The notes: generated from the sequence alone by a model not told the origin. Counted from the stretch's first letter, positions 5,330-22,165 are shown. The stretch is DNA of 64,000 nucleotides from an uncultured Alcaligenaceae bacterium (GCA_964620265.1 CAZUGY010000002.1:13504-77503); one strand, 5' to 3'. Translations and numbers: made by a program.

Positions 5330-6351
5330 CGCCCCGGGCGCGTCGGGCCCCTGGCGTTGCGTCCGGCACGCCGGGACGAAGGCGTCGCATCGTATTGCCG
5401 GCGGTACCAGTGGGAGAACCCGCTCGAGCCCGAGAAGCCGAGCAGCGTCGCGATCTCGGCGAGGCTGCGCCGGTCCTCGAGATAGCGTTCCGCGAGCTCG
5501 CGCCGCACGGCGTCGACGATGCCCGAGAACGTCGCGCCGTCCTTCGCGAGGCGGCGGTGGATCGTGCGCCGGTCCACCCCCAGGTGCTGCGCGGCGCGGT
5601 CGATCGTGCACGCGCCGGTGCCGAGCAGGGTCACGACGAGATCGCGCACCTGGGCCGCGATGTCCTCCTGCGCGCGCACGGCGCGCTGCCCGTCGAGCAT
5701 GCGCTGCGCGAGGCGCGCGAGCTCCGGGTCGGCGTGGGCATTGGGGCGCGCGAGATCCGCCAGCGCGCACACGATGCCGTTGAAGTCGTGGCCGAACTCG
5801 ACGTGACGCCCGAAGATGCGCTCGTGGATCGTGCGATCCGCGGGCGGATCGTGCGCGAAGCAGACGCGGCGCGGTCGCCAGTCGCTGCCGAGCAGGTTCT
5901 GCAGCGTGCGAAAGGCGACGCCGATCGCGAGCTCGGTCGCCTGGCGCACGGGGCCGCCGTGCCCGATTACCAGCAGCTCGCGCAGGACGAGCACGTCGGC
6001 GGCTTCCTCGATGGTGAGGTGCAGCGACTCGTTCAGGCGCCACCCGTGCTCGACGAAGGCCTGCAGCGCGAGCCGCGGCGTGGGCTGCTCGCGGATCAGG
6101 AGGCCGAGCGGCCCGAGGCTCGACAGCCGCCGCGTCTCCGCCATGAGCAGGCCAAAGGCGTCGACGCCGCTCCTGCCCGCCGACGCCTCGAGCAGCGCGC
6201 GGACGGCATCGATGGGAACGACCACCTCCGGGTCCTCGAGGCAGCGCGCGGGAAGGGCGAACTCGCGCAGCATGCACGCCGGATCGAGGCCGCAGGCGCG
6301 CGCCACGTCCGCGTAATTGGTGAGGCTCGCGCTCCTGATGAGGCCGTTCAC
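5326..6351 (-). CDS. AraC-family transcriptional regulator (OruR/VirS-like N-terminal ligand domain)
   Basis: LIRSASLTNY N-terminus and a C-terminal double HTH (AAQHLGVDRRTIHRRL; IATLLGFSGSSGFSHWYRR). The GTG at 6351 has a GGAGG RBS; the ORF track start at 6360 is an alternative. Confidence 0.9.
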   Translation of the reverse strand: MNGLIRSASLTNYADVARACGLDPACMLREFALPARCLEDPEVVVPIDAVRALLEASAGRSGVDAFGLLMAETRRLSSLGPLGLLIREQPTPRLALQAFVEHGWRLNESLHLTIEEAADVLVLRELLVIGHGGPVRQATELAIGVAFRTLQNLLGSDWRPRRVCFAHDPPADRTIHERIFGRHVEFGHDFNGIVCALADLARPNAHADPELARLAQRMLDGQRAVRAQEDIAAQVRDLVVTLLGTGACTIDRAAQHLGVDRRTIHRRLAKDGATFSGIVDAVRRELAERYLEDRRSLAEIATLLGFSGSSGFSHWYRRQYDATPSSRRAGRNARGPTRPGR

Positions 6352-6368
6352 GCCGGACACCTCCCCGC

Positions 6369-6431
6369 GTCCCGAATGAGCAAGTTTACGTCACAGGGGA
6401 TCAACCACCAATGGAGGGTGGCGCCGACAAT
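6369..6431 (+). promoter_or_regulatory. AraC-type activated promoter P1: two GTC-N9-CAA direct repeats 21 bp apart, plus -10-like GACAAT
   Basis: GTCccgaatgagCAA at 6369-6383, GTCacaggggatCAA at 6390-6404, GACAAT at 6426-6431. The same geometry recurs at 11171-11233. Confidence 0.7.
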
Positions 6432-6479
6432 GGCATCCGTCCCCCAAGTCCCCCACGAACACCCGAGCGCTCCCGCCCG

Positions 6480-7805
6480 ATGGCTCTCCACGCCGCCGCC
6501 TTCGACCTCGCACCCGACCGTCCCGCGCCGCGCCGGTACGCATGGACGGTGTTCGGCGTGCTGTTCGCGCTCATGGTGGTCGACTACGTCGACCGCCAGG
6601 TCATCGTGTCGATGTTCTCGCACCTCAAGGCGGAGTGGGACCTCTCCGACGGCCAGCTCGGCGCGCTCGTGTCGATCGTCTCCGTGACCGTCGCCGCCGG
6701 CGCCGTGCCGCTCTCGCTGCTCGCGGATCGCTGGAGCCGCGTCAAGAGCATCTTCCTGATGGCGGTGGTGTGGAGCCTCGCCACGATCTCGTGTGCATTC
6801 GCGGGCAGCTACATGCAGCTCTTCGCCGCGCGCGGGCTGGTGGGGCTGGGCGAGGCGGCCTACGGGACCGTGGGCGCCGCGCTGATCGCGACGCTGTTTC
6901 CCGTACGCATGCGCAGCTCCGTGCTCGGGGCGTTCTTCCTGGCCGGCATCCTGGGCTCGGTGCTGGGCGTGGTCCTGGGCGGCCTCATCGCGGAGCGCTG
7001 GAGCTGGCAGGCCGGCTTCGGCGTGGTCGGCGTGCCGGGCCTCCTCCTCGCCTTCGTGTTCCTGTTCGTCGTGCGCGATTACAAGACGGTCCCGCTGCCG
7101 CGGGCGAGCGGCAGCGGCAGCCGGGCCGCGCTCGCCACGCGCGCCATCGTCGCGGCACTGCTGAAGCCGCGCACGGCGCTCGTCGCGTCGCTCGGCGCGG
7201 GCTTCCAGCTCCTCACGCTGTCGATGACCTATGCATGGCTGCCGACGTACTTCAACCGCTACTACGGCCTCGCGCCGGACGTGGCGGGATTGAAGGCGGG
7301 CGTCGTCGTCCTCGTCGGCGGGATCGGCGCCTTCGTGTGGGGCGTGGTGGCGGACCGCCTGACGCCGCGCATCGCCTGCGCCCGCCTGTACGTGCCCGCG
7401 GTGGGTGCCGTCCTGACGGCGATCCTGATGGGCAGCGCCTTCGGGCTGCTGCCGCCCGGCAATGCGCAATTCGCGCTGATCGTCGCCGGCGGCCTCATGA
7501 TGGCCGTGAACGTCGGCCCCATCAGCGCGGCCGTGATCGACGTCGTGCATCCGTCGGTGCGGGCGACGGCCGCCTCGATCCTTTCGCTGATCCAGAACCT
7601 GTTCGGCCTCGCCGGCGGGCCGCTGCTCACCGGCATGCTGTCGGACCGCTACGGGCTGCAGTTCGCGCTCACCTGCGTGCCCGCCTTCTGCCTGCTGGCC
7701 GCGATCCTGTTCGCGCTCGCCGCACGGACCTACGTCTTCGACCTCCGCCAGGCGCAGCAAGTGGATGCCGCCGAGCGCGGCGCCGGCGCGCTGCAACCCG
7801 CGTGA
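6480..7805 (+). CDS. MFS transporter (spinster-like / aromatic acid:H+ symporter-like)
   Basis: 12 hydrophobic segments. Motifs VDYVDRQVI, LADRWSRVK, GLGEAAY and LSDRYG. Confidence 0.92.
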   Translation: MALHAAAFDLAPDRPAPRRYAWTVFGVLFALMVVDYVDRQVIVSMFSHLKAEWDLSDGQLGALVSIVSVTVAAGAVPLSLLADRWSRVKSIFLMAVVWSLATISCAFAGSYMQLFAARGLVGLGEAAYGTVGAALIATLFPVRMRSSVLGAFFLAGILGSVLGVVLGGLIAERWSWQAGFGVVGVPGLLLAFVFLFVVRDYKTVPLPRASGSGSRAALATRAIVAALLKPRTALVASLGAGFQLLTLSMTYAWLPTYFNRYYGLAPDVAGLKAGVVVLVGGIGAFVWGVVADRLTPRIACARLYVPAVGAVLTAILMGSAFGLLPPGNAQFALIVAGGLMMAVNVGPISAAVIDVVHPSVRATAASILSLIQNLFGLAGGPLLTGMLSDRYGLQFALTCVPAFCLLAAILFALAARTYVFDLRQAQQVDAAERGAGALQPA

Positions 7806-8221
7806 TGAAGAAGAAGATGAACACCCCCGCCGTCCACGATCCGCTGCCGACGCGCACGCAGCGCCTCGCGAGCGGGAACTGGAATCCCGACTGGGAGCCG
7901 TTCGCGCAGATCGATCCGGCGTGGACCGAGAAAGCCATCGCCTTCGCGATCGCGCCCGCGGTTGCCGGCGCGCTCGACAAGAAGACGATCGAGCTCATCG
8001 GCATCGCGCTCGACGCCTCGGTCACGCACCTGTACGCCCCCGGCGTGCGCCGCCACATCCAGCGCGCGCTGAAGGCAGGGGCCACGCGCGAGGAAATCAC
8101 CGCCGTGCTGCAACTGTGCTGCATGCAGGGCCTGCACAGCATGTGCCTCGCCGCGCCGATCCTCCTCGACGAGCTCGGCGAGGCGCCATCGACCATCACC
8201 ACCGAGAGGACCCGACCATGA
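7805..8221 (+). CDS. Carboxymuconolactone decarboxylase / AhpD-like family protein (no CxxC)
   Basis: The ATG overlaps the MFS stop (alternative ATG at 7817). LDKKTIELIGIALDA...HIQRALKAGATREEITAVL fits the CMD family pattern. Confidence 0.8.
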   Translation: MKKKMNTPAVHDPLPTRTQRLASGNWNPDWEPFAQIDPAWTEKAIAFAIAPAVAGALDKKTIELIGIALDASVTHLYAPGVRRHIQRALKAGATREEITAVLQLCCMQGLHSMCLAAPILLDELGEAPSTITTERTRP

Positions 8222-9276
8222 ACTTCCTAGACGGATCGCTGTTCCCCGAGAACCAGGACAAGCTCGTCATCACCGCCGCGCCGTACGGCCCCGAGTGGGT
8301 GCCGGCCGACTTTCCGGAGGACATCCCGGTCACGATGGAAGCGCAGATCCAGAAGGCGGTGGACTGCTACAACGCGGGGGCTGCCGTGCTGCACCTGCAC
8401 GTGCGCGAGCTCGACGGCAAGGGCAGCAAGCGGCTGTCGAAGTTCAACGAGCTGATCGCCGGCGTGCGCCGCGCCGTGCCGGACATGGTCATCCAGGTCG
8501 GCGGCTCGATCTCCTTCGCACCGGAGACCGAAGGCTCCGCCGCCAAGTGGCTGTCCGACGACACGCGCCACATGCTGGCCGAGCTCGACCCGCGGCCGGA
8601 CCAGGTCACGGTGACCGTGAACACCACGCAGATGAACGTCGTGGAGCAGATGGAGATCGACGACATCGCCGGCACGTCGATGGCGGAGCCTGCGAACTAC
8701 CAGGCCTACCGCGAGATGATCGTCCCCTCCGCCCCGAGCTGGGTCGAGGAGCACGTGCGCCGCCTGAGCGCCGCCGGCATCCAGAGCGCCTTCCAGTTCT
8801 ACAACATCAACAGCTACGAGACCGTGGAGCGCCTGATCCGCCGCGGCGTCTACAAGGGCCCGCTGGTGATGAACTGGGTGGCGATCGGCGGCGGGATGGA
8901 CCAGCCGACGATCTACAGCCTGTCCAATTTCCTGCGCGCCATTCCCGACGGCTCGATGCTGACCGTGGAGAGCAGCATGCGCAATGTGCTGCCGATCAAC
9001 ATGATGGGCATCGCCATGGGCCTGCACGTGCGCTGCGGCATCGAGGACAACCTCTGGAACCAGTCGCGCACGGCCAGGATGACCACCGTGCAGCAGATCG
9101 AGCAGCTGGTGCGCATCGCCGGCGAGTTCGGCCGTGACGTGGCCAACGGCAGGGAGGCGCGCGAGATCTGCAAGATCGGCGTGTTCTACGATACAGTGGA
9201 ACAGACGCTGGCCGCCAATGGCTTCGCCCCGAACGCCAGGGGCCGCCAGCAGGGTTTCCTGCGCAAGGTCGCGTGA
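8218..9276 (+). CDS. Beta-keto acid cleavage enzyme (3-keto-5-aminohexanoate cleavage / DUF849 family)
   Basis: ITAAPYG start, metal-binding LHLHVR, IQVGGS and HVRCGIEDNLW. ATGA overlap with the upstream gene. Confidence 0.88.
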   Translation: MNFLDGSLFPENQDKLVITAAPYGPEWVPADFPEDIPVTMEAQIQKAVDCYNAGAAVLHLHVRELDGKGSKRLSKFNELIAGVRRAVPDMVIQVGGSISFAPETEGSAAKWLSDDTRHMLAELDPRPDQVTVTVNTTQMNVVEQMEIDDIAGTSMAEPANYQAYREMIVPSAPSWVEEHVRRLSAAGIQSAFQFYNINSYETVERLIRRGVYKGPLVMNWVAIGGGMDQPTIYSLSNFLRAIPDGSMLTVESSMRNVLPINMMGIAMGLHVRCGIEDNLWNQSRTARMTTVQQIEQLVRIAGEFGRDVANGREAREICKIGVFYDTVEQTLAANGFAPNARGRQQGFLRKVA

Positions 9277-9284
9277 GGATGACC

Positions 9285-10277
9285 ATGGCACAAGCGATCC
9301 GCATGTACGCGACGGGCGGGCCCGAAGTGCTGCGCCTCGAGGAGGTCGCGGTGGGCGATCCCGGGCCCGGCCAGGCGCGCATCCGGCACGTCGCCGTCGG
9401 CCTCAATTTCGCCGACACCTACTTCCGCAGCGGCCTCTATCCGGTCCCGTTGCCGAACGGCATCGGTGTGGAAGCCGCGGGCATCGTCGAGAGCGTCGGC
9501 GACGGCGTGACCAACGTCGCGCCGGGCGATCGCGTGACGTACACGGGATTCGTCAACACGCTCGGCGCGTACAGCACCAAGCGCATCATCGCGGCGGCGC
9601 CGCTCATCAAGCTGCCCCCCGCCATCGCGTGCGAGACCGCCGCCGCGATGACCATGCGCGGGCTCACGTCGGCGTACCTGATGCGGCGCATCTGGCCGCT
9701 CCACGCGGGCGACACGATCCTGCTCCACGCGGCCGCGGGCGGCGTCGGCCTCATCGTCTCGCAGTGGGCGAAGCTGCTCGGGCTCGGCGTCATCGGCACG
9801 GTGTCGACGCCAGCCAAGGCCGATATCGCCCTCGCGCACGGATGCGACCACGTGATCCTCTACGGCCGGGAGGATGTCGCGGCGCGCGTGCGCGAGATCA
9901 CCGGCGGCGCCGGCGTGGCGGTGGTCTACGACAGCGTGGGCAAGGACACGTTCGCGGGCTCGCTCGCGTCGCTGCGCCGGCGCGGGCTGCTCGTGTGCGT
10001 CGGCACGGCGTCGGGTCCCATCCCGCCGATCGACGCGATGCAGCTGGCGCTGAAGGGATCGCTGTTCGTCACCCGCCCGGCGCTGGCCGACTACATCGCC
10101 GATCCGGCGGAGAAGGACGCGCTCGCCGCGGAGCTCTTCGACCACGTGGCGGCAGGACGCATCAGGATCGAGATCAACCAGCGCTACCGCCTCGAGGATG
10201 CGGCGCAGGCGCATCGCGACCTCGAGTCGCGCCGGACCATGGGCTCGTCCATCTTCGAGGTGACCTCACATGACTAA
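9285..10277 (+). CDS. NADPH:quinone oxidoreductase (Zn-independent MDR family, Qor-like)
   Basis: AIRMYATGGPEVL, GLNFADTYFRSGLY, HAAAGGVGL, VYDSVGKDTF and LESRRTMGS. A GAGGA RBS precedes the ATG at 9285. Confidence 0.92.
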   Translation: MAQAIRMYATGGPEVLRLEEVAVGDPGPGQARIRHVAVGLNFADTYFRSGLYPVPLPNGIGVEAAGIVESVGDGVTNVAPGDRVTYTGFVNTLGAYSTKRIIAAAPLIKLPPAIACETAAAMTMRGLTSAYLMRRIWPLHAGDTILLHAAAGGVGLIVSQWAKLLGLGVIGTVSTPAKADIALAHGCDHVILYGREDVAARVREITGGAGVAVVYDSVGKDTFAGSLASLRRRGLLVCVGTASGPIPPIDAMQLALKGSLFVTRPALADYIADPAEKDALAAELFDHVAAGRIRIEINQRYRLEDAAQAHRDLESRRTMGSSIFEVTSHD

Positions 10278-11166
10278 CGTCATCGACAACACGGCGCCCG
10301 CCGTGACCCCCACGCAGCTTCGCGTCGAGCCGCTGACCTGCGCCATCGGCGCGGAAGTCCTCGGCGTGAGTCTCGGCGACGCCGCGCGCGACGACGGGCT
10401 GTTCGCGCAGATTCGCGCCCTGCTCCTGCGGCACAAGGTGCTGTTCCTGCGCAACCAGGACATCACGCGCGCCGAGCACGTCGCGTTCGCGCGCAGGTTC
10501 GGCGACCTCGAGGATCACCCGGTGGCCGGCAGCGATCCCGACCACCCCGGCCTCGTGCGCATCTACAAGTCACCCGACCAGCCCAACGACCGCTACGAGA
10601 ACGCGTGGCATACCGACGCGACGTGGCGCGAGAAGCCGCCGTTCGGCTGCGTGCTGCGCTGTGTGGAGTGCCCGCCGGTGGGCGGCGACACCATGTGGGC
10701 GAACATGGCCCTTGCCTACGAGCGCCTGCCCGATCACGTGAAGGCACAGATCGCCGGCCTGCGCGCGCGCCACAGCATCGAGGCGACGTTCGGCGCCGCC
10801 ATGCCGATCGAGAGGCGCCTGGCGCTCAAGGCGCAGTTCCCGGACGCCGAGCACCCGGTCGTGCGCACGCACCCGGAAACCGGCGAGAAGGTCCTGTTCG
10901 TCAACGCGTTCACGACGCACTTCACGAACTTCCACACCCCGGAGCGCGTGCGCTACGGCCAGGACTACAGCCCCGGCGCCGCCCAGCTCCTCGAGTACCT
11001 CGTCAGCCAGGCGCTCATCCCCGAGTACCAGGTCCGCTGGCGCTGGGAGCCCAACGCGGTCGCCATCTGGGACAACCGCTGCACGCAGCATTACGCAGTC
11101 ATGGACTACCCGCCGTGTCACCGGAAGATGGAGCGCGCCGGGATCATGGGGGACACGCCTTTCTAG
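10270..11166 (+). CDS. TauD/TfdA-family Fe(II)/2-oxoglutarate dioxygenase
   Basis: WHTD (HxD), GGDTMW, EHPVVRTHPETG and IWDNRCTQHYA (distal His) followed by a conserved Arg. Confidence 0.93.
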   Translation: MTNVIDNTAPAVTPTQLRVEPLTCAIGAEVLGVSLGDAARDDGLFAQIRALLLRHKVLFLRNQDITRAEHVAFARRFGDLEDHPVAGSDPDHPGLVRIYKSPDQPNDRYENAWHTDATWREKPPFGCVLRCVECPPVGGDTMWANMALAYERLPDHVKAQIAGLRARHSIEATFGAAMPIERRLALKAQFPDAEHPVVRTHPETGEKVLFVNAFTTHFTNFHTPERVRYGQDYSPGAAQLLEYLVSQALIPEYQVRWRWEPNAVAIWDNRCTQHYAVMDYPPCHRKMERAGIMGDTPF

Positions 11167-11170
11167 CGCC

Positions 11171-11233
11171 GTCCCCGAAAGACAAGTTCGTGACACTCGC
11201 GATCAAGCATCGCGCGAGGCCGGCGCGGACAAT
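11171..11233 (+). promoter_or_regulatory. AraC-type activated promoter P2, same architecture as P1
   Basis: GTCcccgaaagaCAA at 11171-11185, GACactcgcgatCAA at 11192-11206 (21 bp period), and GACAAT at 11228-11233, 24 nt after the start of the second CAA, exactly as in P1. Confidence 0.68.
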
Positions 11234-11363
11234 GTGATTCACGGGTACGGCCGGCAACACGGCCGGCCCGCGAACAACGACGGCGCTTTCCGGGCGCCGC
11301 GGCAGCACCGAAGACCCGCACACAAGGGTAAATGAACTCCGAAGGGTTCAGGGAGGGCTACGC

Positions 11364-12404
11364 ATGTACCGTCACATCCTGGTTCCGATCGACGACTCGC
11401 CGCTCGCGATAGACACCGTGCAGCAGGCGGTCACGTTCGCGCGCTCGATCGGCGCGAAGGTGACATTCTTCCATGCCCAGCACGACTACGCCGCCTCGAG
11501 CCTCGGGGCGCTCGACCGGGTCATGTCGCCGGGCGCCTTCAACGAAGAGGTCGCCGGCGAGGCACGCGCGCTGCTCGCGAAGGCCGAGGTCGTCGCGCGC
11601 ACCGCGGGCGTCCCGCACGACGCGCTCGCGATGACCTGCGACCGTCCGCACGAGGCGATCCTCGGCGCCGCCGAGGCGCACGGCTGCGACCTCATCTTCA
11701 TGGCGTCGCACGGGCGCCGCGGCCTCACGGGCCTCGTGCTGGGCTCGCAGACGAGCAAGGTGCTGCAGGCGGCCTCCATCCCGGTGCTGGTCGCCACGGT
11801 GGAGAGCAACCGCGCGCCCTCGTCGGCCGACGCCGCACTCATGGTGGTGCGCGACGAGCACCGCTCGCTCGCGGCGGTCATCCACGGGCTCGAGTTCGTC
11901 GTCCGCGAGGCACGCGAGCGCGGCACGCCGGCGTCGGTGCCGCTCCTGCGCGCGATCGTGCGCTATGTCCATGACTTTCCGGAGACGCTGCATCACCCCA
12001 AGGAGGACACCTACCTCTTCCCGCTCCTGCGCGCGCGCACGACCGAGTACGACGCCACGCTCGACGCGCTCGCCCGGCAGCACGAGACGGGGACCGCGCT
12101 CACGCAGGCACTGTCGCGCGCGGTGGATGCCTACGCCGCGGATCCCGCGCAGGGCCTGCCCGTCCTCGCCGACGCGGCCGCGGCGTTCGCCACCGCGCAG
12201 ATGGAGCACATGCTCCTCGAGACGAAGGTGATCATCCCCGCGGCGCGCAGGCACCTCACCGCCGAGGACTGGACGCTCGTCGCGGACGCGTTCGGCCAGA
12301 ACGGCGATCCGCGCTTCTCCATCGATGCGGACGAGGAATACCGCCACCTCTTCGCACGCATCCTGAATCTCGCGCCGGCCGGCGTCGTCGGCAGCGCGCA
12401 ATGA
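11364..12404 (+). CDS. Universal stress protein fused to a hemerythrin-like (HHE) domain
   Basis: N-terminal USP (YRHILVPIDDS; DLIFMASHGRRGLTGLVLGSQTSKVL). C-terminal EHRSL, HHPKED, QHETG and EHMLLE metal-ligand pattern. Confidence 0.85.
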   Translation: MYRHILVPIDDSPLAIDTVQQAVTFARSIGAKVTFFHAQHDYAASSLGALDRVMSPGAFNEEVAGEARALLAKAEVVARTAGVPHDALAMTCDRPHEAILGAAEAHGCDLIFMASHGRRGLTGLVLGSQTSKVLQAASIPVLVATVESNRAPSSADAALMVVRDEHRSLAAVIHGLEFVVREARERGTPASVPLLRAIVRYVHDFPETLHHPKEDTYLFPLLRARTTEYDATLDALARQHETGTALTQALSRAVDAYAADPAQGLPVLADAAAAFATAQMEHMLLETKVIIPAARRHLTAEDWTLVADAFGQNGDPRFSIDADEEYRHLFARILNLAPAGVVGSAQ

Positions 12405-12430
12405 ACATCATTCCACAGGGGAGACCTGAC

Positions 12431-14275
12431 ATGCACCGTTCCTTCACGTTCCGCCGCACGGCGGCCGCCGCCGCACTTGCCGCGCTGTTCGCAGCGCCGG
12501 CGCTCGCCTTCGAGATCGACACCGGCAATCCCGACCTCGAGCTGCGCTGGGACAACACCTTCCGCTACAACCTGGGCGGTCGCGTGCAGGACCAGAACCC
12601 GGCGATCCTGGGCGCCGTGAACAACGACGACGGCGACCGCAACTTCGACAAGGGCTCGCTCGTCACCAACCGCCTCGACATCCTGTCCGAGTTCGACTTC
12701 GTGTGGCAGAAGAGCTACGGTGCGCGCGTGAGCGCGGCGCTGTGGTACGACGACGCCTACCGCAGCCTCGACAACACCTTCACGGCGACCGCCAACACGC
12801 TGGTCAACGGCCTGCCCGCGGCCGGCCAGCTGTCGCCGTACAGCAAGCGCTTCCTCGAGGGCCCGTCGGCCGAGTGGCTCGACGCCTTCGGCTTCGCGAA
12901 CTTCGAGGCACTCGGCATGCAATGGAACGTCAAGGCCGGCCAGCACACCGTGTACTGGGGCGACAGCCTCCTGCTCGGCGGCGCCGTCCATGGCGTGTCG
13001 TATGCGCAGAACTCGATCGACCTCATGAAAGGCTTCGGCACGCCGGGCGCGGAAGCGAAGGAGCTGTTCCGTCCCAAGGGCGGCATCACGCTGCAGACGC
13101 AGGCGACCAAGGACCTGTCGATCGCCGGCCAGTGGTTCTACAACTGGCAGGCCGTGCGCGCGCCCGAGTCGGGCAGCTACCTGACCGCGCACGACGCACT
13201 GCAGTTCGGCGGCGACTCGCTGGTCTTCGGCCCGAATCCGTTCGCCGCGGCGATCCCCGGCGCGCCGGCGTTCACCCGCCTGTGGAACCAGCAGGCGATC
13301 CCCGCGTCGCGCTACAGCGCGAGCCTGGGCGACTGGGGCATCTCCGCGCGCTGGAGCCCGGACTGGCTCGACGGCACGATGGGCTTCTATTTCCGCAACG
13401 CGACCGACATCCTGCCGCAGACGGTCGTCATCCCCGGCTTCGCGGCGCTGCCGGCGGCCACCTGCCAGGCCATCGGCGGCATCGTGGTGGCGCCCACCGC
13501 GTGCATCATCAATCCCAAGGCGACGAGCGTCGCCGACCTCACGCAGAGGGGCAAGGTCGGCGAATACCGGACGGCATACGGCGACAACATCCACATCTTC
13601 GGCGTGACGCTCTCCAAGAACATCGGCGGCGTCAGCGTGGGCGCGGAGCTCTCGTACCGCCAGAACATGCCGCTGCTGTCGGACCCGGTGCAGGCGCTGC
13701 CGACGCCGCTCGTCAATGCCGCCGCGGGCCAGATCTCGATCAACAACATTCCGGAGAACGGCACGCCCGGCGCGCTCGGCGACACCTTCCACGGCGTCCT
13801 CAACGGCTTCTGGATCATGTCCAAGACGCCGCTCTTCGACAGCGCGACGTTCGCGGCGGAAGGCACGTGGATGCGCTGGAGCCGGGTGACGCAGAACGAG
13901 GCGGTATTCAAGGGCCGCGACGGCTACACTGCGATCGACAAGCCGTCGCGCGACTTCTTCGGCATCGCCTTCAACGTCACGCCGACCTGGTTCCAGGTGT
14001 GGCCGGGCGTGGACCTGCTGGCGCCGATGTCGTATTCGCGCGGCGTGTCCGGCAATGCCGCCGTCTTCCTCGGGGGCAACGAAGCTGCCGGCAACTATGC
14101 CGTGGGCCTCGCCGCCGACATCTACTCGAAGTACCGCATCGACCTCAAGTACACCGGTTACTTCGGCGACTACTCGACCAATGAGGCGACGGGCGCGGCG
14201 ACCACGTTCAACGGCGTGTTCGGCTCGCTGTCCGACCGCGGCTGGGTCTCTCTCACGTTCAAGACCACGTTCTAA
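12431..14275 (+). CDS. DUF1302-family outer-membrane beta-barrel protein
   Basis: Signal peptide, WDNTFRYN, NNDDGDRNF, KAGQHTVYWGDSL and a terminal DRGWVSLTFKTTF beta-signal. Confidence 0.85.
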   Translation: MHRSFTFRRTAAAAALAALFAAPALAFEIDTGNPDLELRWDNTFRYNLGGRVQDQNPAILGAVNNDDGDRNFDKGSLVTNRLDILSEFDFVWQKSYGARVSAALWYDDAYRSLDNTFTATANTLVNGLPAAGQLSPYSKRFLEGPSAEWLDAFGFANFEALGMQWNVKAGQHTVYWGDSLLLGGAVHGVSYAQNSIDLMKGFGTPGAEAKELFRPKGGITLQTQATKDLSIAGQWFYNWQAVRAPESGSYLTAHDALQFGGDSLVFGPNPFAAAIPGAPAFTRLWNQQAIPASRYSASLGDWGISARWSPDWLDGTMGFYFRNATDILPQTVVIPGFAALPAATCQAIGGIVVAPTACIINPKATSVADLTQRGKVGEYRTAYGDNIHIFGVTLSKNIGGVSVGAELSYRQNMPLLSDPVQALPTPLVNAAAGQISINNIPENGTPGALGDTFHGVLNGFWIMSKTPLFDSATFAAEGTWMRWSRVTQNEAVFKGRDGYTAIDKPSRDFFGIAFNVTPTWFQVWPGVDLLAPMSYSRGVSGNAAVFLGGNEAAGNYAVGLAADIYSKYRIDLKYTGYFGDYSTNEATGAATTFNGVFGSLSDRGWVSLTFKTTF

Positions 14276-14287
14276 GGAGTACCGCAC

Positions 14288-15649
14288 ATGTTCGACAAGA
14301 CTCTCGTTGCCCTGGCCTTCGCGTCGCTCGCGGGCACCGCCTTCGCCGCGGTCTCCGCCGAGGAGGCGAAGCAGCTCGGCACCACGCTCACCGCCGTCGG
14401 TGCCGAGAAGGCCGGCAACAAGGAAGGCACCATTCCCGCCTACACCGGCGGGCTGAAGGAGATCCCCGCGTCCTACAAGCAGGGCAGCGGCATCCGTCCG
14501 TCGCCCTTCGAGGCGGAGAAGCCCCGGCTGGTCATCGATGCCAAGAACGCGGCGCAGCACGCGGACAAGCTGACGGAGGGCACCAAGGAGCTCCTGAAGC
14601 GCTACCCCGCCACGATGCGCCTCGACGTGTATCCCACGCAGCGCGTGGTCGCGTTGCCCGCGAAGGTGCTCGCCAACACCGCGAAGAACGCGGTCGGCAC
14701 CAAGAGCGTGAACGACGGCCTCGGCGTGGAGAACATGCTCCCGGGCATCCCGTTCCCCATTCCGAAGACGGGCAACGAGGCGATGTGGAACCACCTCGTG
14801 CGCTATCCGGGTGTGGCCTACGTGCAGAAGTACGAGAACTGGAACGTCGACTCGGCCGGCGTGCCGACGCTCGCCACCGCGGGCACGCTCACCAACGAGT
14901 TCCCGCTGTTCGATCCGAAGCGCCCCGAAGGCGCCGCGAAGGAGAGCGATCCCTTCTGGAAGATCAAGGTGCTCTACACGGGACCCGCGCGCCGGGCCGG
15001 CGAGGCGCTGATGGTCGTCGACTCGGTCAATCCGATCGTGCAGGGCCGGCGGGCGTGGCAATACCTCCCGGGACAGCGCCGCGTGAAGCTCGCGCCGGAC
15101 CTGTCCTACGACACGCCGAACGCAGGCACGGCGGGCACCTCGACCTATTCGGACGCGTTCGTGTTCAACGGCGCGATGGACCGCTTCGACTGGAAGCTCG
15201 TGGGCAAGAAGGAGATGTACGTCCCGTACAACGGCTACAAGCTCATGTACGCGAAGGACATCAAGCCCGCGCTCACGCCGAATCACGTCAATCCCGAGTT
15301 CATGCGCTGGGAGCTGCATCGCGTCTGGGTCGTGGAAGCGACGCTCAAGCCGGGCAAGCGCGACCTGTACAGCAAGCGCGTGTATTACCTCGACGAGGAC
15401 AGCTGGGCCGCGCTCGCCGCCGACCAGTACGACAACAAGGGGCAGCTCTACCGCGCCACGATCGTCAACCCGACGTGGAGCTACGACGCGAGTGCCGTGA
15501 ACATCGACAACTACACGTTCTACGACTTTTCCTCGGGCTCGTACGCCGTCGTCGGCGCCTCCGGAAGGTCCGATGGCATCCGCTACGTCGATCCGCTGCC
15601 CGAGCTGCAGTGGGCGTCGGAGTCGCTGGCGGGGTCGGGGATCCGTTGA
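14288..15649 (+). CDS. DUF1329-family periplasmic protein (LolA-like lipid-shuttle fold)
   Basis: Signal peptide, LTAVGAEKAGN, IPAYTGG, PFPIPKTGNEAMWNH, AWQYLPGQRRVK, RWELHRVWVVEATLKPGKR and YLDEDSW. Confidence 0.88.
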   Translation: MFDKTLVALAFASLAGTAFAAVSAEEAKQLGTTLTAVGAEKAGNKEGTIPAYTGGLKEIPASYKQGSGIRPSPFEAEKPRLVIDAKNAAQHADKLTEGTKELLKRYPATMRLDVYPTQRVVALPAKVLANTAKNAVGTKSVNDGLGVENMLPGIPFPIPKTGNEAMWNHLVRYPGVAYVQKYENWNVDSAGVPTLATAGTLTNEFPLFDPKRPEGAAKESDPFWKIKVLYTGPARRAGEALMVVDSVNPIVQGRRAWQYLPGQRRVKLAPDLSYDTPNAGTAGTSTYSDAFVFNGAMDRFDWKLVGKKEMYVPYNGYKLMYAKDIKPALTPNHVNPEFMRWELHRVWVVEATLKPGKRDLYSKRVYYLDEDSWAALAADQYDNKGQLYRATIVNPTWSYDASAVNIDNYTFYDFSSGSYAVVGASGRSDGIRYVDPLPELQWASESLAGSGIR

Positions 15650-16686
15650 AGCTTCTGCGCACCTTCGTCCTCTGCGCCGGCGCGGTCGCGCTGCCCGCCG
15701 GGGCAGCCGGCTTCGTCGACGTGCTGGCGCAGCCGGCCGTGATGTCGCCGCTGGCGAGCCGGTCGCTCATGCAGGCGGTGGCACGCGCAGGGACGAAGCT
15801 CGTCGCCGTCGGCCAGCGCGGGCACGTGCTCGTGTCGGCCGACGACGGCAAGACCTGGAAGCAGTCGCCGGTGCCCGTGAGCTCCGATCTCACGGCCGTG
15901 CATTTCGTCGACGACCGCAGGGGATGGGCCGTCGGCCACGACGGCGTGATCCTCGCTTCCGGGGACGGCGGTGCATCGTGGACGCTGCAGCTCGACGGCG
16001 CGCGCGCGAACCAGGCGCTGGTCGACGACCTCGCGCGCAAGCCCGAGGCGCAGGCGCTGCTCGCGGAAGCGAACCGCAATCTCGAGCAGGGTCCGGACAA
16101 GCCCTTCCTCGACGTGTGGTTCGCGGACGAGAAGGTCGGCTTCGCCGTCGGCGCCTACAACCTCGCATTCCGCACGGAAGACGGCGGGAAGACCTGGCAG
16201 CCGTGGTTCGATCGCATCGACAATCCCAAGCTGCTGAACCTGTATGCGATCCGCCCTGCGGCCGGCGAGCTGTTCATCGTCGGCGAGGCGGGCCTGGTGC
16301 TGAAGCTCGATGCGCCGGCGCAGCGCTTCCGCGCGGTCGAGCTGCCGTACCAGGGCACGCTCCTCGGCATCACCGGCAGCGCGGACGCGGTGATCGTGTT
16401 CGGCCTGCGCGGCCAGGCGTGGCGCAGCGAGGACGCCGGGAAGACATGGAGCAAGGTCGACGCGGGATTGCCGGCGACGATCGTCGCCGGAACGCCGGTG
16501 GCCGGCCAGGGATTCGCGCTCGCCGACGCGAGCGGACGCGTCAGCGTCTCGCGCGACGGCGGCCGCAACTTCCGGGCGGCGTCCCTTCCGCCCTCGATGA
16601 TGCTTGCCGGCATGGCCGACGCCGGCGAGGGCCGCCTCGCCCTCGCGGGCGCCCGCGGCGTGACGGTCGTCGCGCTGCCGCGCTGA
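15646..16686 (+). CDS. YCF48/BNR-repeat beta-propeller protein
   Basis: TTG start overlaps the upstream stop. Repeated Asp-box motifs (SADDGKTW, SGDGGASW, TEDGGKTW, SEDAGKTW, SRDGGRNF). Confidence 0.85.
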   Translation: MKLLRTFVLCAGAVALPAGAAGFVDVLAQPAVMSPLASRSLMQAVARAGTKLVAVGQRGHVLVSADDGKTWKQSPVPVSSDLTAVHFVDDRRGWAVGHDGVILASGDGGASWTLQLDGARANQALVDDLARKPEAQALLAEANRNLEQGPDKPFLDVWFADEKVGFAVGAYNLAFRTEDGGKTWQPWFDRIDNPKLLNLYAIRPAAGELFIVGEAGLVLKLDAPAQRFRAVELPYQGTLLGITGSADAVIVFGLRGQAWRSEDAGKTWSKVDAGLPATIVAGTPVAGQGFALADASGRVSVSRDGGRNFRAASLPPSMMLAGMADAGEGRLALAGARGVTVVALPR

Positions 16687-16702
16687 CCACCGCGGAACTG
16701 CC

Positions 16703-19180
16703 ATGATGACGAGCGACGACAGCGCGGGTGAGATGCCCGTCGTGCGGGCGCTGGGCGACTTCGACCGCAACTCCGGCAACGCCCTCGAGCGGCTCGTGTT
16801 CAACCACCGCCGCACCATGCTCGCGGTGTGCGCGGCGATCACCGTCGTGCTCGCCTTCTTCGCCGTCACGAAGCTCGTGCTCAATGCGAGCTTCGAGAAG
16901 ATGATTCCGCAGGGCCAGGCGTACATCCAGAACTACCTCACCTACCAGAAGGACCTGCGCGGCCTCGGCAACGTGCTGCGCGTCGTCGTGGAGAACACGA
17001 GTGGCGACATCTACGATCCCGCCTACCTCGAGACGCTGAAGGAGATCAACGACGAGCTCGTCGTGACGCCCGGCGTGGATCGCGCGTGGGTCAAGTCGCT
17101 GTGGATGCCTGCGGTGCGCTGGACCGAGGTCACCGAGGAGGGCTTCCGCGGCGGGCCGGTGATGCCGCCGAGCTTCGACGGCTCGCCCGCATCGGTGGAG
17201 CAGCTGAAGCAGAACGTCGCGCGTGCCGGGATCCTGGGCAGCCTCGTCGCCGACGACCGCAAGTCGTCCATGATCTTCGTGCCGCTGCTCGACCGCGAGC
17301 CCGGCACCGGCAAGCGCATCGATTATCACGGGCTGTCGCGCGTGCTGGAGGACAAGATCCGCGGCAAGTACGAGCTGGCCCACGCGGTGGACGCCGCGGC
17401 CGCGAAGGCGCCCGCGCACGTCAAGGTCCACGTGATCGGATTCGCCAAGCTGATCGGCGAGCTGATCGACGGGCTGGTCAAGGTCATGGCCTTCTTCGCC
17501 GTGGCCGCGGCGATCGCGACCGCCATCATCTACGCCTACACGCGCTGCGTGCGCAGCACGGCACTGGTGATCGCCTGCTCGCTCGTCGCCGTCATCTGGC
17601 AGCTCGGCCTGGTCGCGCTGCTGGGCTTCGAGCTCGACCCCTATTCGATCCTGGTGCCCTTCCTCGTATTCGCGATCGGCGTGTCGCACGGCGCGCAGAA
17701 GATGAACGGCATCATGCAGGACATCGGGCGCGGCACGCACAAGCTGGTCGCGGCGCGCTACACCTTCCGCCGCCTCTTCCTCGCCGGCCTCACCGCGCTG
17801 CTGGCCGACGCCGTCGGCTTCGGGGTGCTGATGGTGATCGACATCCCGGTCATCCGCGAGCTCGCCATCACCGCGAGTATCGGCGTCGCCGTGCTGATCT
17901 TCACCAACCTGCTGCTCCTGCCCGTGCTGCTGTCGTATACCGGCGTGAGCGCGTCCGCCGCGCAGCGCAGCCTCGCCGAAGAGCGCGCGGAAACGCGCGG
18001 ACGGGGCCTGGGCAAGCTGTGGCTGCTGCTCGACCGCTTCACCACGCGGCGCTATGCCACGGCGGCGGTCGCCGTCGCGGCGGTGCTGGCCGTCGGCGGC
18101 TTCGCGGTCGCGACGAAGCTCGCGATCGGCGACCTCGACCCCGGCGCGCCCGAGCTTCGCCGCGACTCGCGCTACAACCGCGACACGGCCTACGTCACGA
18201 GCCACTACGCGCTGTCGTCCGACCAGTTCGCCGTCATCGTGAAGACCGAGCGCGACGGCTGCCTCCACTACGAAACGCTGGTCGAAGCGGACCGCCTGGG
18301 CTGGACGCTGCGCCAGGTCCCCGGCGTGCAGGCGACCGTCTCGCTCGCCGATTCGGTGCGCCAGATCACCGCCGGCTCGTTCGAAGGCAGCCCCAAGTGG
18401 CTCACGATCAACCGCAACCAGGACGTCCTCAACTTCGCGGGACAGCAGACCTCGGTCAACAACCCCGACCTCTTCAATCTCGACTGCTCCGTGATGCCGG
18501 TGATCGCCTACCTGGCCGATCACAAGGCGGACACGCTCGATCGCGTGGTCGAGGCCGTGCGCGCCTTCGCCGCCGAGCACGACACCGAGGACCGCAAGTT
18601 CCTGCTCGCCGCCGGCACCGCCGGGATCGAGGCCGCCACCAACATCGTCGTGCGCGACGCCAACCGGACGATGCTCCTGTACGTCTACGCCGCGGTGATC
18701 GTGCTCTGCTTCATCACCTTCCGGAGCTGGCGCGCGGTGATCGTCGCCGTCGTGCCGCTCGCGATCACATCGATCCTCTGCGAGGCGCTGATGGTCGCGC
18801 TCGGCATGGGCGTCAAGGTGGCCACCCTCCCCGTCATCGCGCTCGGCGTCGGCATCGGCGTCGACTACGCGCTCTACCTGCTGTCGGTGCAGCTCGCGCA
18901 GCAACGCCGCGGCGTGCCGCTCACGCAGGCGTACCGCAACGCCGTGCAGTTCACCGGCAAGGTGGTGGCGCTCGTCGGCGTGACGCTCGCCGCGGGCGTG
19001 ATCACGTGGGCGTTCTCGCCCATCAAGTTCCAGGCCGACATGGGCATCCTGCTCACGTTCATGTTCCTGTGGAACATGATCGGCGCCCTGGTCCTCATTC
19101 CGGCGCTGTCGTACTTCCTGCTGCCGACGAGCGTCGTCGCAGGCCGGATCCCGGCCCGCCGCGCGATGGCGGCGGCCTGA
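16703..19180 (+). CDS. MMPL/HpnN-type RND transporter associated with DUF1302/DUF1329
   Basis: 825 aa with two membrane halves (AIGVSHGAQKMNG and GIGVDYALYLL), KFQADMGILLTFMF, and large periplasmic loops. Confidence 0.88.
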   Translation: MMTSDDSAGEMPVVRALGDFDRNSGNALERLVFNHRRTMLAVCAAITVVLAFFAVTKLVLNASFEKMIPQGQAYIQNYLTYQKDLRGLGNVLRVVVENTSGDIYDPAYLETLKEINDELVVTPGVDRAWVKSLWMPAVRWTEVTEEGFRGGPVMPPSFDGSPASVEQLKQNVARAGILGSLVADDRKSSMIFVPLLDREPGTGKRIDYHGLSRVLEDKIRGKYELAHAVDAAAAKAPAHVKVHVIGFAKLIGELIDGLVKVMAFFAVAAAIATAIIYAYTRCVRSTALVIACSLVAVIWQLGLVALLGFELDPYSILVPFLVFAIGVSHGAQKMNGIMQDIGRGTHKLVAARYTFRRLFLAGLTALLADAVGFGVLMVIDIPVIRELAITASIGVAVLIFTNLLLLPVLLSYTGVSASAAQRSLAEERAETRGRGLGKLWLLLDRFTTRRYATAAVAVAAVLAVGGFAVATKLAIGDLDPGAPELRRDSRYNRDTAYVTSHYALSSDQFAVIVKTERDGCLHYETLVEADRLGWTLRQVPGVQATVSLADSVRQITAGSFEGSPKWLTINRNQDVLNFAGQQTSVNNPDLFNLDCSVMPVIAYLADHKADTLDRVVEAVRAFAAEHDTEDRKFLLAAGTAGIEAATNIVVRDANRTMLLYVYAAVIVLCFITFRSWRAVIVAVVPLAITSILCEALMVALGMGVKVATLPVIALGVGIGVDYALYLLSVQLAQQRRGVPLTQAYRNAVQFTGKVVALVGVTLAAGVITWAFSPIKFQADMGILLTFMFLWNMIGALVLIPALSYFLLPTSVVAGRIPARRAMAAA

Positions 19181-19220
19181 CCCGGCCTGCATTCCCCGTC
19201 CAACGAACGAGATCCCCGTC

Positions 19221-20870
19221 ATGAATCCCCTCGCCATCCAGCGCACTCCGGCGGCGCACGACACGCCGCTGATCCTCCGCCACATCCTCGAGCGCGGCGT
19301 CTCACAGGCCCCGCAGCAGGAGATCGTGTACGCCGACCAGGCGCGCCACACGTACACCACGCTCGCGGAGCGGATCGCGCGGCTGGCCTCCGGCCTCGCC
19401 GCGCTCGGCGTGCGCCCCGGCTCGACGGTGGGCGTGATGGACTGGGACAGCCACCGCTACCTCGAGTGCTTCTTCGCGATCCCGATGATGGGTGCGGTGC
19501 TGCACACGATCAACGTGCGCATCTCGCCGGACCAGATCCTCTACACCATCAATCACGCCGAAGACGACGTGATCCTGGTCAACGCCGAGTTCCTGCCCAT
19601 CCTGGAGGCGATCCAGCACAAGCTCCGGCGCGGCGTGAAGCTCGTGCTGCTCTGTGATCTGCCGGCCGCGCCGGCGTCGAGCCTCGCGTTCGCGCACGGC
19701 TACGAGGAGATGCTGGCATCCGCCCCGGCGTCGTACGCCTTTCCCGATCTTCCCGACGACACCCGCGCCACCACGTTCTACACGACGGGCACGACGGGCC
19801 TGCCGAAGGGCGTCTACTACAGCCATCGCCAGCTCGTGCTGCACACGCTGGCCATCGCGGAGGCCTTCGCGAATGCGCCGCACGCCTCGTTCACCGCGCG
19901 CGACGTGTACATGCCCGTCACGCCGATGTTCCACGTGCACGCGTGGGGGCTGCCCTATCTCGCGACCCTGCTCGGCGTGAAGCAGGTCTACCCGGGACGC
20001 TACGTGCCGGACAGGCTGCTCGCGCTCGTCACCCGCGAAGGCGTCACGTTCTCGCATTGCGTGCCGACGATCCTGTCGATGCTGCTCGGCAGCCCGGCGG
20101 TATCGGACGCGAACCTTGCCGGGTGGAAGATGATCATCGGCGGCTCGGCGCTCCCGCTGCCGCTCGCGCGCAAGGCCCTGGACTGCGGCATCGACGTGAT
20201 CGCCGGCTACGGCATGTCCGAGACCTGCCCGATCCTGACGCTCGCGCACCTGCGTCCGCACATGAGCGAATGGGACGTCGAGCGCAAGCTGCCGGTCCTC
20301 GTGCGCGCCGGGCGTCCGATTCCCTTCGTCGAGCTGCGCATCGTCGACGCGGACATGAACGACGTCCCGCACGACGGTGTGGCGCAGGGCGAGGTCGTGG
20401 TCCGCTCGCCCTGGCTCACGCAGGGCTACCTGCACGATCCCGAGCGCTCCGCCGAGCTCTGGCACGGCGGCTGGCTGCACACGGGCGACGTGGGCATCAT
20501 CGACACCGAGGGCTATCTCAAGATCGTCGACCGCATCAAGGACGTCGTGAAGACCGGCGGCGAGTGGGTCTCGTCGCTCGACATCGAGGACCTGGTGCTG
20601 CGCGTGCCCGGCATCGTCGAGGCCGCCGTCATCGGCGTGCCCGACGACAAGTGGGGCGAGCGCCCGGTGGCCTTCGTCGTGCGCAAGGGCGATGCCGGTG
20701 CGACCGAGGACGCCATCCGCCGTCACGTCCAGGACTTCGCGGATCGCGGCGCGATCTCGAAGTACGCCGTGCCGGACCGCGTGTACTTCGTCGAGGCGAT
20801 TCCGAAGACCAGCGTCGGCAAGCTCGACAAGAAGGTGATCCGCGCGCAGCTCGCGGCCCCCGCGAAGTGA
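19221..20870 (+). CDS. Medium/long-chain acyl-CoA ligase (AlkK/DmdB-like)
   Basis: YTTGTTGLPKG AMP-binding motif, PMFHVHAWG, GYGMSET, WLHTGD, DRIKDVVKTGGEW and PKTSVGKLDKK. Confidence 0.93.
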   Translation: MNPLAIQRTPAAHDTPLILRHILERGVSQAPQQEIVYADQARHTYTTLAERIARLASGLAALGVRPGSTVGVMDWDSHRYLECFFAIPMMGAVLHTINVRISPDQILYTINHAEDDVILVNAEFLPILEAIQHKLRRGVKLVLLCDLPAAPASSLAFAHGYEEMLASAPASYAFPDLPDDTRATTFYTTGTTGLPKGVYYSHRQLVLHTLAIAEAFANAPHASFTARDVYMPVTPMFHVHAWGLPYLATLLGVKQVYPGRYVPDRLLALVTREGVTFSHCVPTILSMLLGSPAVSDANLAGWKMIIGGSALPLPLARKALDCGIDVIAGYGMSETCPILTLAHLRPHMSEWDVERKLPVLVRAGRPIPFVELRIVDADMNDVPHDGVAQGEVVVRSPWLTQGYLHDPERSAELWHGGWLHTGDVGIIDTEGYLKIVDRIKDVVKTGGEWVSSLDIEDLVLRVPGIVEAAVIGVPDDKWGERPVAFVVRKGDAGATEDAIRRHVQDFADRGAISKYAVPDRVYFVEAIPKTSVGKLDKKVIRAQLAAPAK

Positions 20871-21415
20871 CCGAGCCCACCGTCCTGATCGTGCCCGGCC
20901 TGCGCGATCATGTGCCGGAGCATTGGCAGGCGCTGCTCGAGGCCCGGCTCCCCAACGCGCGCTGCGTGCCGCGGATGGAGCACGACAAGCTCTCGCGCGC
21001 GGCGTGGGTCGCGGCGCTCGACCAATCGCTCGCCGCGATCGACGGACCGGTGATCCTCGTCGCGCACAGCGCGGGCGTGCTCATCACCGTGCACTGGGCG
21101 CAGGAACACCGCCGTCCGATCCGCGGCGCGCTGCTCGCGACGCCGCCTGACCTGTCGCGCCCGCTGCCGGCCGGCTATCCGGCGCAGAGCGTGCTGCTCG
21201 CCAATGGGTGGCTGCCCACGCCCCGCGCGCGCCTGCCGTTTCCGAGCATCGTCGCGGCGAGCACGAACGATCCGCTCGCCGAGCCCGTCCACGTGGCCGC
21301 ACTCGCCAGCTCGTGGGGCAGCCGGCTCGTCGACGTCGGCGCGGTCGGACATCTCAATCCCGCCGCAGGCTACGGCCCATGGCCGCGCGCGGAAGCGCTG
21401 ATCGCCGAGCTCTGA
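20867..21415 (+). CDS. RBBP9/YdeN-family alpha/beta hydrolase
   Basis: GTG overlaps the ligase stop. LIVPGL, HWQ, VAHSAG (nucleophile Ser), ASTNDP and GHLN. Confidence 0.88.
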   Translation: MTEPTVLIVPGLRDHVPEHWQALLEARLPNARCVPRMEHDKLSRAAWVAALDQSLAAIDGPVILVAHSAGVLITVHWAQEHRRPIRGALLATPPDLSRPLPAGYPAQSVLLANGWLPTPRARLPFPSIVAASTNDPLAEPVHVAALASSWGSRLVDVGAVGHLNPAAGYGPWPRAEALIAEL

Positions 21416-21453
21416 ACGGACCAGACGGACGACGACGGACCGAGGCGGAGCAC

Positions 21454-21468
21454 TGTCGAGATTTGCAT
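21454..21468 (+). promoter_or_regulatory. Partial copy of the TGTC-N4-WTTGCA motif upstream of the DUF3302 operon
   Basis: TGTCGAGATTTGCAT differs from TGTCGAGTTTTGCAA (minus strand, 38574-38588) at 2 of 15 positions. It also overlaps the palindrome CGAGAT-ttgc-ATCTCG at 21457-21472. Confidence 0.4.
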
Positions 21469-21610
21469 CTCGGATGCTCGCGCAAGGATTGACGCCTTCC
21501 GCGGACACCGCGCTGCACCCCAGCGACAACCCGTGCCTGGCGCCGCGTCGGGACGCAGAAGCGGCGCCGCTGTAAACTCCGCTGCTATCCATCTGCTGGA
21601 GCACGTCCGC

Positions 21611-22162: not shown

Positions 22163-22165
22163 CGC

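Follow-up and report, generated by a model that had tools for sequence, protein, structure and literature searches.

Activators of the AraC/XylS family work at their best-studied promoters, XylS at Pm of the TOL plasmid and AraC at araBAD I1-I2, by class II activation, and in the standard arrangement the activator site extends from about -70 to -35 of the promoter. MarA binds differently, as a monomer on a single 20-bp box that may lie in either orientation. Here we analyse a stretch of 64,000 nucleotides from an uncultured Alcaligenaceae bacterium (GCA_964620265.1 CAZUGY010000002.1:13504-77503; 'the window' throughout), in which a gene for an AraC-family regulator lies divergently from a run of catabolic genes and of genes for a DUF1302/DUF1329 envelope module. 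Two promoter regions concern us: P1, between the regulator gene and the MFS transporter gene that heads the enzyme operon, and P2, ahead of the envelope module. An earlier note on this DNA had proposed that P1 and P2 belong to one AraC regulon. We consider it likely, from sequence comparison, that both are activator-dependent sigma-70 promoters with a common operator, served by the divergently encoded regulator, and the enzyme operon and the envelope-transport operon would very probably be switched on together.

The closest described relative of the envelope module is AmeABCD of Castellaniella defragrans, which reduces dye accumulation and raises monoterpene tolerance, indicating export (PMC6394551). 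Cofit clusters of DUF1302, DUF1329, BNR and RND genes are present in Shewanella and Pseudomonas, and the fitness studies that describe such clusters propose export of envelope components or ester hydrolysis; in the same literature, a DUF1302/DUF1329 pair of Pseudomonas putida is thought to depend on a LuxR-type regulator (bioRxiv 10.1101/072470; bioRxiv 10.1101/2020.07.04.188060).

P1 and P2 are the two best operator matches in the genome

The earlier note had described tandem repeats of GTC or GAC, nine bases and CAA, with a 21-bp period and a GACAAT beyond them, and every one of these strings stands where it had been reported in both regions (Table 1). The similarity is larger than was described there. 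When the two 65-mers are compared without gaps, 42 of 65 bases are identical, including the common GTCCC, CAAGTT, CAC and GATCAA. The assembly of the window genome comprises 4.19 Mb, and ∼8.3 million positions were scanned for operator matches; with the P1 65-mer as query, P2 was the top match and the runner-up reached 37/65. The pattern of the earlier note matches at P1 and P2 only, genome-wide, a test that is post hoc because the pattern was written from these sites. We therefore give more room to a weight matrix that was trained on 17 orthologous P1 sites of other species, with the window and its two nearest relatives left out. With this matrix P1 reached 40.0 bits and P2 30.9 bits, and no other position in the genome exceeded 13.0 bits; the best of these others, on contig C6, lies inside a coding frame and was taken as a chance match.

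GC-rich DNA can produce sizeable likenesses by chance, and with P2 as query a GC-rich 65-mer does reach 43/65 somewhere in the genome. Chance as the source of the likeness between P1 and P2 is nevertheless effectively refuted: among 8.35 million positions the leave-out matrix separates P2 from the best of the background by 18 bits, the bases that agree fall on the rare A/T positions conserved in the 73 sites described below, and P2 is conserved in relatives. The resemblance is thus confirmed and lies beyond chance.

A longer string, GAGG..GGCGC.GACAATG, had also been noted as common to the two regions. It is present in both, but its spacer part, GAGG..GGCGC, is not conserved in the P1 or P2 of the closest relatives, and for this reason we do not treat it as functional. 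The columns between operator and -10 carry no information across the 73 sites, and the common spacer string is probably coincidental. A sigma-54 reading of TGGCGC... was rejected as well, since the GG/GC spacing is off and the same columns are unconserved.

The operator is a direct repeat of a two-box half-site

Across 73 distinct sites the consensus is tGTCCCnAAnnGnyAAGTnTAyGTCACnnnnnGnnAA, with A41 and A42 beyond it and nAnAAT at offsets 57-62, the flanks and the spacer being uninformative; the form taken at P1 is GTCCC-N7-yAAGTyTAyGTCAC-N7-yCAA-N21-nAnAAT. We compared the frequency matrix of the motif against itself at shifts of 8 to 31 bp. The sole notable peak of self-similarity was at a shift of 21 bp (13.6 bits, with no other shift above 2.3 bits), and the motif is therefore a true direct repeat of the two-box half-site GTCmC-N5-G-N2-AA. 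Half-sites ∼21 bp apart, the proximal one placed at the presumptive -35, give the conserved motif exactly the tandem geometry of AraC/XylS operators.

Downstream of the operator, which ends at offset 35-37, four bases of the -10 (A58, A60, A61 and T62) are conserved at 83–90% in a box at the fixed offset 57, and at the forward -35 position about one base in six agrees with TTGACA. If the transcript begins ∼7 nt after the -10, the operator would span about -69 to -34. A recognisable -10, a poor or absent -35 and a putative activator site ending at about -35 are the features of an activator-dependent (class II) sigma-70 promoter, and the predicted layout of P1 and P2 is that of a classic AraC/XylS-activated promoter. 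A scan of 5200-12500 and 12400-23000 for consensus sigma-70 promoters found none, which fits weak, activator-dependent promoters and is uninformative when taken alone.

The operator accompanies a single subfamily of regulators

The regulator gene begins with a GTG at 6351 that aligns with the ATG of its orthologues; a GGAGG lies 8 nt ahead of it, at 6364-6360. Its product has the composition of an AraC/XylS-family protein, with an N-terminal domain of effector-binding/dimerisation type (PF12625 Arabinose_bd, residues 24-207) and a C-terminal domain with two helix-turn-helix motifs (PF12833 HTH_18, residues 257-331, with a weaker match to PF00165). The best NCBIfam profiles were QhpR (176.3 bits against a cut-off of 250), GliR (94.2 against 570) and CypR (73.5 against 500), and identity with any of these equivalogs was rejected because all three scores lie far under the curated cut-offs. 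At E ≤ 1e-30 the protein is the sole member of its subfamily in the window genome.

We then asked how regulator and operator are distributed among relatives. Orthologues of the regulator, 60–83% identical, are encoded in 22 of 138 genomes of the genus. A strict search for the core motif, allowing at most one mismatch, found it in 18 of these genomes, 17 of which belong to the 22 that encode the regulator; in the remaining one (G126) the whole cluster is present as a fragmented, frameshifted copy. The reversed pattern, used as control on the same 138 genomes, gave no match. In other families the motif also adjoins a homologous araC, whose products are 42–55% identical.

On a wider scale, a profile scan of the regulator through 185,579 species genomes returned 80 loci. 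These include metagenome-assembled genomes (MAGs) of Casimicrobiaceae, Usitatibacter, Steroidobacteraceae and Nevskiaceae, as well as Burkholderiaceae, Variovorax and Rubrivivax; among cultured bacteria, Variovorax, Ideonella and Paraburkholderia silviterrae carry the homologous locus. The scan upstream of orthologous clusters that had been put forward as a check of the proposal found the repeat and its -10 at fixed spacing kept beside araC in 73 of the 80 loci, each with a site of at least 12 bits, the threshold for operator matches in orthologous loci, directly beside the regulator start codon and on the strand of the divergent operon; two of the seven loci that have no such site are cut by contig ends. 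The arrangement extends to loci with a different gene order (TauD-BKACE-dehydrogenase-MFS; BKACE, beta-keto acid cleavage enzyme), and two paralogous regulator-BKACE pairs, 42% identical, have the same operator geometry. Two sites in the genome, one regulator of the subfamily and the co-occurrence of motif and araC together argue for the proposal that P1 and P2 belong to one AraC regulon.

The motif might instead be bound by a different transcription factor, the neighbouring araC being a bystander, and in one relative (G075) a gene of Crp/Fnr type is indeed inserted in the locus. Neither the window nor most loci have that gene. In the genus, the motif occurs essentially only in genomes with this araC and always directly beside it, it accompanies the diverged regulator homologues of other families, and a 21-bp direct repeat with two boxes in each half-site is the AraC/XylS pattern. 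We regard a different factor as very unlikely and take the divergently encoded regulator as the probable binder.

The promoter unit has been copied in other lineages

Besides the araC-adjacent (primary) sites, the loci contain 13 secondary sites, all directed at the adjacent downstream gene on the strand of the site, eight of them within the operon and five after araC. Extra sites stand ahead of BKACE in four loci (L079, L088, L089 and L094). In G075 (L048 1801-2553) the Crp/Fnr-type gene lies between P1 and the MFS gene and has another complete promoter copy at its 3' end; duplication of the promoter unit seems to have accompanied the insertion. Five gammaproteobacterial MAG loci (L118, L120, L121, L123 and L124) have a copy of operator and -10 ∼20–80 bp after the araC stop, followed by a gene for a TonB-dependent receptor, then one for a PF03601 membrane protein, then a DUF72 gene. 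The extra operator copies arose independently in other lineages, once ahead of a TonB-dependent receptor. Because the whole unit has repeatedly been duplicated, operator plus -10 would constitute a portable regulated promoter.

Two further observations concern the genome G126. On its contig C23 (L140, ∼15859, minus strand) there is a third operator copy of 21 bits, with GACAAT at the right offset; it has neither the AA34-35 box nor a co-directional gene behind it, a gene for an M48 peptidase converges on it, and it may be a relic. On contig C24 (L139), nearly every gene of the cluster is split into two blast segments, which suggests frameshifts from long-read assembly errors rather than real pseudogenes.

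P1 contains a predicted divergent promoter for the regulator gene

At P1 the operator starts 17 bp from the GTG of the regulator gene, so the regulator's own promoter must overlap it. The secondary sites, which have no divergent araC beside them, allow the bases that would belong to this promoter to be recognised. We compared the 73 primary sites with the 13 secondary sites by Fisher tests. Conservation of the repeat boxes and of the forward -10 does not differ between the two groups, whereas T18, A41 and A42 are present at 84–92% in primary sites and at 8–15% in secondary sites (P = 4e-9, 2e-7 and 3e-8 respectively; 4e-5 to 4e-4 when the secondary sites were reduced to seven lineages). On the minus strand these three bases would supply the TA of a -10 at offsets 19-14 (TAGACT/TAAACT) and the TT of a -35 at offsets 42-37 (TTGnnn); exactly 17 bp separate the two hexamers. 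The contrast between primary and secondary sites thus serves as a natural experiment that separates the bases of the activator site from those of the overlapping divergent promoter. Since the operator covers the spacer and the -10 of the candidate araC promoter, negative autoregulation would be the simplest reading. Autoregulation had been suggested earlier from the overlap of P1 with the 5' region of araC, and the bases conserved in araC-adjacent sites only lend it independent support.

The same overlap raises the possibility that the AraC protein binds the common site and mainly represses, since repression is what is expected where the site covers the candidate araC promoter. On the forward strand, however, the whole site is upstream of the -10 and stops at the -35 position, and the forward promoters have next to no -35, a layout of activator-dependent promoters and not of repressed ones. 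We judge a mainly repressing role distinctly unlikely and retain activation at P1 and P2, with repression expected at the regulator's own gene.

P2 is probably a clade-specific internal promoter

P2 starts 5 bp past the TauD stop codon. A sequence scan found no terminator between TauD and P2, and P2 is therefore best seen as an internal booster. A site at the TauD/Usp junction (Usp, universal stress protein) is present in four genomes, the window, G142 (L059/L046), G126 (L139) and G020 (L015/L060), and scores 19.9 bits in G142 and 30.0 bits in G126, with GACAAT or CACAAT at the same offset in both. In G020, the closest relative, 18 bases of the P2 operator are masked as N (L015 8548-8565 = L060), so the site is unscored; its distance from box to -10 is seemingly 4 bp shorter than that of the window. 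L089 has a weaker site at this junction, of 18.7 bits. The P2 operators and -10 boxes of the window and G142 are nearly identical, while substitutions and indels are numerous in the leader; three species (window, G142 and G126) have retained the operator and -10 bases as the leader diverged.

In relatives the TauD-Usp gap is usually 15–78 bp and contains no second site. The ancestral state looks like one long operon read from P1, to which the clade of the window would later have added a spacer of ∼200 bp carrying the second promoter copy, so that P2 looks derived. The earlier note had linked the enzymes with the DUF1302/DUF1329 genes by their common operator. This stands for the clade of the window; in most relatives the genes are joined by tight operon spacing with no second operator. 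The link thus rests on conserved operon structure in most species, together with the common operator in the clade of the window.

The leader that would follow from a start at P2, ∼124 nt (11240-11363), can form small GC-rich hairpins, one of them immediately ahead of the ribosome-binding site; covariation was almost absent from these hairpins when four relatives were aligned, and an Rfam scan of 5000-21000 returned nothing relevant.

It could be argued that P2 is left over from a local duplication of P1, with no function of its own, and that the genes behind it are expressed by read-through from P1 only. Read-through is likely anyway across a junction with no terminator, most relatives manage with the short gap and no second site, and P2 has a mismatch at a well-conserved base (T22 to A). 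What argues for function is selective retention: the window, G142 and G126 keep the P2 boxes and -10 at exact spacing, although spacer and leader have diverged and the bases of the araC promoter are absent. In addition, extra sites have arisen independently at other gene junctions in other lineages. A relic seems unlikely to us, and we prefer P2 as a working second promoter of the regulon.

Several points weigh against the regulon as we propose it. Among the loci of the collection scan in which TauD is followed by Usp/DUF1302, only two of 51 carry a site at that junction (neither the window nor G126 belongs to this set, and the N-masked G020 copy is not counted); because nearly all such loci have no site, the second promoter would be dispensable for the function of the cluster. 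The proximal half-site of P2 has A at position 22 in place of a T that is conserved at 92%, and may therefore bind more weakly. The regulator was assigned to the motif by adjacency and co-occurrence, and activation was preferred to repression solely because of where the site lies and because the -35 is missing.

Taking both sides together, we favour the following mechanism. The operator would act as two direct repeats of GTCmC-N5-G-N2-AA with a 21-bp period, the proximal half-site abutting the missing -35, and would most likely be bound by a dimer of the divergently encoded regulator, whose effector-bound form would recruit RNA polymerase at P1 and P2. P1 would drive the genes for MFS, CMD (carboxymuconolactone decarboxylase/AhpD-like), BKACE, dehydrogenase and TauD, and would also hold the regulator's own minus-strand promoter (TTGGTG-17 bp-TAAACT), where the regulator would repress its own gene. 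P2 would act as an internal booster for the genes of the Usp/hemerythrin protein, DUF1302, DUF1329, the BNR propeller, the HAE3 RND pump, the acyl-CoA ligase and, probably, the serine hydrolase.

Genes of the two proposed transcription units

The features of the locus are collected in Table 1. The junctions of the P1-operon genes all overlap or abut. The CMD gene, which the earlier note had missed, fills an apparent gap of 412 bp: it overlaps the stop of MFS at one end and the start of BKACE at the other, and it is kept in the same frame, with 61–87% amino acid identity, in 11 orthologous loci. The BKACE product has the family domain and falls short of the cut-offs of all named equivalogs, the best of them, Kce, giving 137 bits where 382 are required. 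Identification of TauD as the taurine dioxygenase equivalog was rejected at 253.3 bits, under the cut-off of 313. None of the enzymes reaches the cut-off of a characterised equivalog, so the substrate is not assignable by NCBIfam scores, and a search of the literature on BKACE together with AraC or TauD found nothing describing this cluster.

Table 1. Promoter elements and genes of the locus, in window coordinates.
Feature	Coordinates	Strand	Basis and remarks
AraC-family regulator, 341 aa	5326..6351	-	PF12625 1.4e-39, PF12833 5.3e-14
Predicted araC promoter	6383..6411	-	-35 TTGGTG 6411-6406, 17-bp spacer, -10 TAAACT 6388-6383; from bases conserved in araC-adjacent sites only; predicted transcript start near 6376
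P1 operator	6368..6405	+	Half-site 1 GTCCC-N7-CAAGT 6369-6385, half-site 2 GTCAC-N7-TCAA 6390-6404; conserved motif, 40.0 bits
P1 boxes	GTC 6369-6371, CAA 6381-6383, GTC 6390-6392, CAA 6402-6404, GACAAT 6426-6431	+	Read directly
P1 -10 GACAAT	6426..6431	+	Fixed offset; predicted transcript start near 6438
MFS transporter, first gene of P1 operon	6480..7805	+	PF07690 5.2e-50; start fits orthologue alignments
CMD gene, 138 aa	7805..8221	+	PF02627 5.2e-09
BKACE	8218..9276	+	PF05853 2.2e-62; start from orthologue alignment
Zinc-type medium-chain dehydrogenase, NADPH:quinone reductase-like	9273..10277	+	PF00107, PF08240; NF008024 344.7 bits, cut-off 348
TauD/TfdA-family 2-oxoglutarate dioxygenase, last gene of P1 operon	10270..11166	+	PF02668 3.9e-67
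P2 operator	11171..11207	+	Half-sites GTCCC-N7-CAAGT and GACAC-N7-TCAA; 30.9 bits, second-best site in genome
P2 boxes	GTC 11171-11173, CAA 11183-11185, GAC 11192-11194, CAA 11204-11206, GACAAT 11228-11233	+	Read directly
P2 -10 GACAAT	11228..11233	+	Offset 57 from operator start, as at P1; predicted transcript start near 11240
Universal stress protein-hemerythrin fusion, first gene after P2	11364..12404	+	PF00582 9.5e-27, PF01814 2.2e-13
DUF1302 outer-membrane barrel (AmeA-like)	12401..14275	+	PF06980 1.3e-106
DUF1329 LolA-like periplasmic protein (AmeB-like)	14288..15649	+	PF07044 6.5e-132
BNR/Ycf48-like propeller (AmeC-like)	15646..16686	+	PF14870 6.3e-21; frame of open reading frame 14785-16686
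RND transporter, HAE3/MMPL type (AmeD-like)	16703..19180	+	PF03176; TIGR00921 HAE3 1.3e-41
Acyl-CoA ligase, long-chain fatty-acid-CoA ligase subfamily	19221..20870	+	PF00501 2.8e-75; NF004837 642 bits, above cut-off 476
Serine hydrolase domain	20880-21415		PF06821; directly 3' of acyl-CoA ligase

Behind P2, the DUF1302, DUF1329, BNR and HAE3-RND genes are consecutive and in this order from 12401 to 19180, as in an AmeABCD-type module; the start codon of the propeller gene is uncertain, with candidates from 15646 to 15778. The P2 transcription unit probably ends with the serine hydrolase, and genes for DUF3302, HlyD and OEP efflux proteins come next. On the other side of the locus an RND efflux operon ends at 5329, and its outer-membrane efflux gene converges with araC, the stop regions overlapping by 4 bp (5326-5329).

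The label 'uptake operon' that the earlier note had given to the genes behind P2 is not justified, because the pump is an HAE3-type RND protein and AmeABCD, the only homologous module to have been studied, behaves as an exporter. The module might also act in import, since a TonB-dependent receptor is found under the same operator in other lineages. We also consider, tentatively and with more doubt than conviction, a picture of a substrate-specific regulon with an interchangeable outer-membrane part: one promoter copy would drive the DUF1302/DUF1329/BNR/HAE3 module in the clade of the window, and another a TonB-dependent receptor in gammaproteobacterial MAGs. In this picture the DUF1302/DUF1329 machine would be a functional analogue of the TonB receptor, carrying the substrate of TauD, dehydrogenase and BKACE (an organic acid) across the envelope, and the 63-bp unit would be a compact dual promoter whose copies lack the three bases serving the divergent regulator gene. 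If the components are interchangeable in this way, the DUF1302/DUF1329 families would gain a defined cargo and a defined inducer to test.

Comparison with known systems

The mechanism proposed here is textbook AraC/XylS regulation, and in that respect the advance is incremental. Four points go beyond the earlier note: the phylogenetic footprint of the operator, the derived nature of P2, the repeated copying of the promoter unit, and the dissection of the predicted divergent promoter within P1. As a whole this is an in silico regulon, well supported, for a new AraC subfamily member. For an uncharacterised AraC subfamily, widespread among soil Betaproteobacteria and Gammaproteobacteria that are uncultured, we obtain a precise, testable model of operator and promoter. 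The DUF1302/DUF1329/BNR/RND envelope module is tied by it to defined catabolic enzymes and one regulator, and discovery of the regulator's inducer would also reveal the likely cargo of this module.

P1 and P2 resemble XylS-Pm and AraC-araBAD in having two direct-repeat half-sites with a 21-bp period, each made of two boxes about one helical turn apart, and in a site reaching from about -70 to -35, where it meets a weak or absent -35. The divergent orientation of the regulator gene, and a binding region that would overlap the promoter of this gene, are further parallels with araC-araBAD. Unlike both systems, the boxes here are GTCmC ... AA, the regulator has a PF12625-type N-terminal domain, no looping or distal operator is evident, and a second, internal copy of the whole promoter lies inside the same cluster. 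The half-site itself recalls the marbox of MarA, SoxS and Rob, with a GC-containing A box (GCAC there, GTCAC here) and an A-rich B box ∼7 bp further on, but two tandem half-sites are conserved here, implying a dimer. QhpR, GliR and CypR have the same overall architecture as the regulator of the window and are its best profile matches; they differ from it in the genes that they regulate, and its scores lie below their cut-offs. Finally, the envelope module has the same four genes in the same order as AmeABCD and the Shewanella and Pseudomonas clusters, and likewise lies inside a catabolic cluster; unlike AmeABCD, it is preceded by a Usp-hemerythrin gene and would be tied by a common operator to the BKACE/TauD operon.

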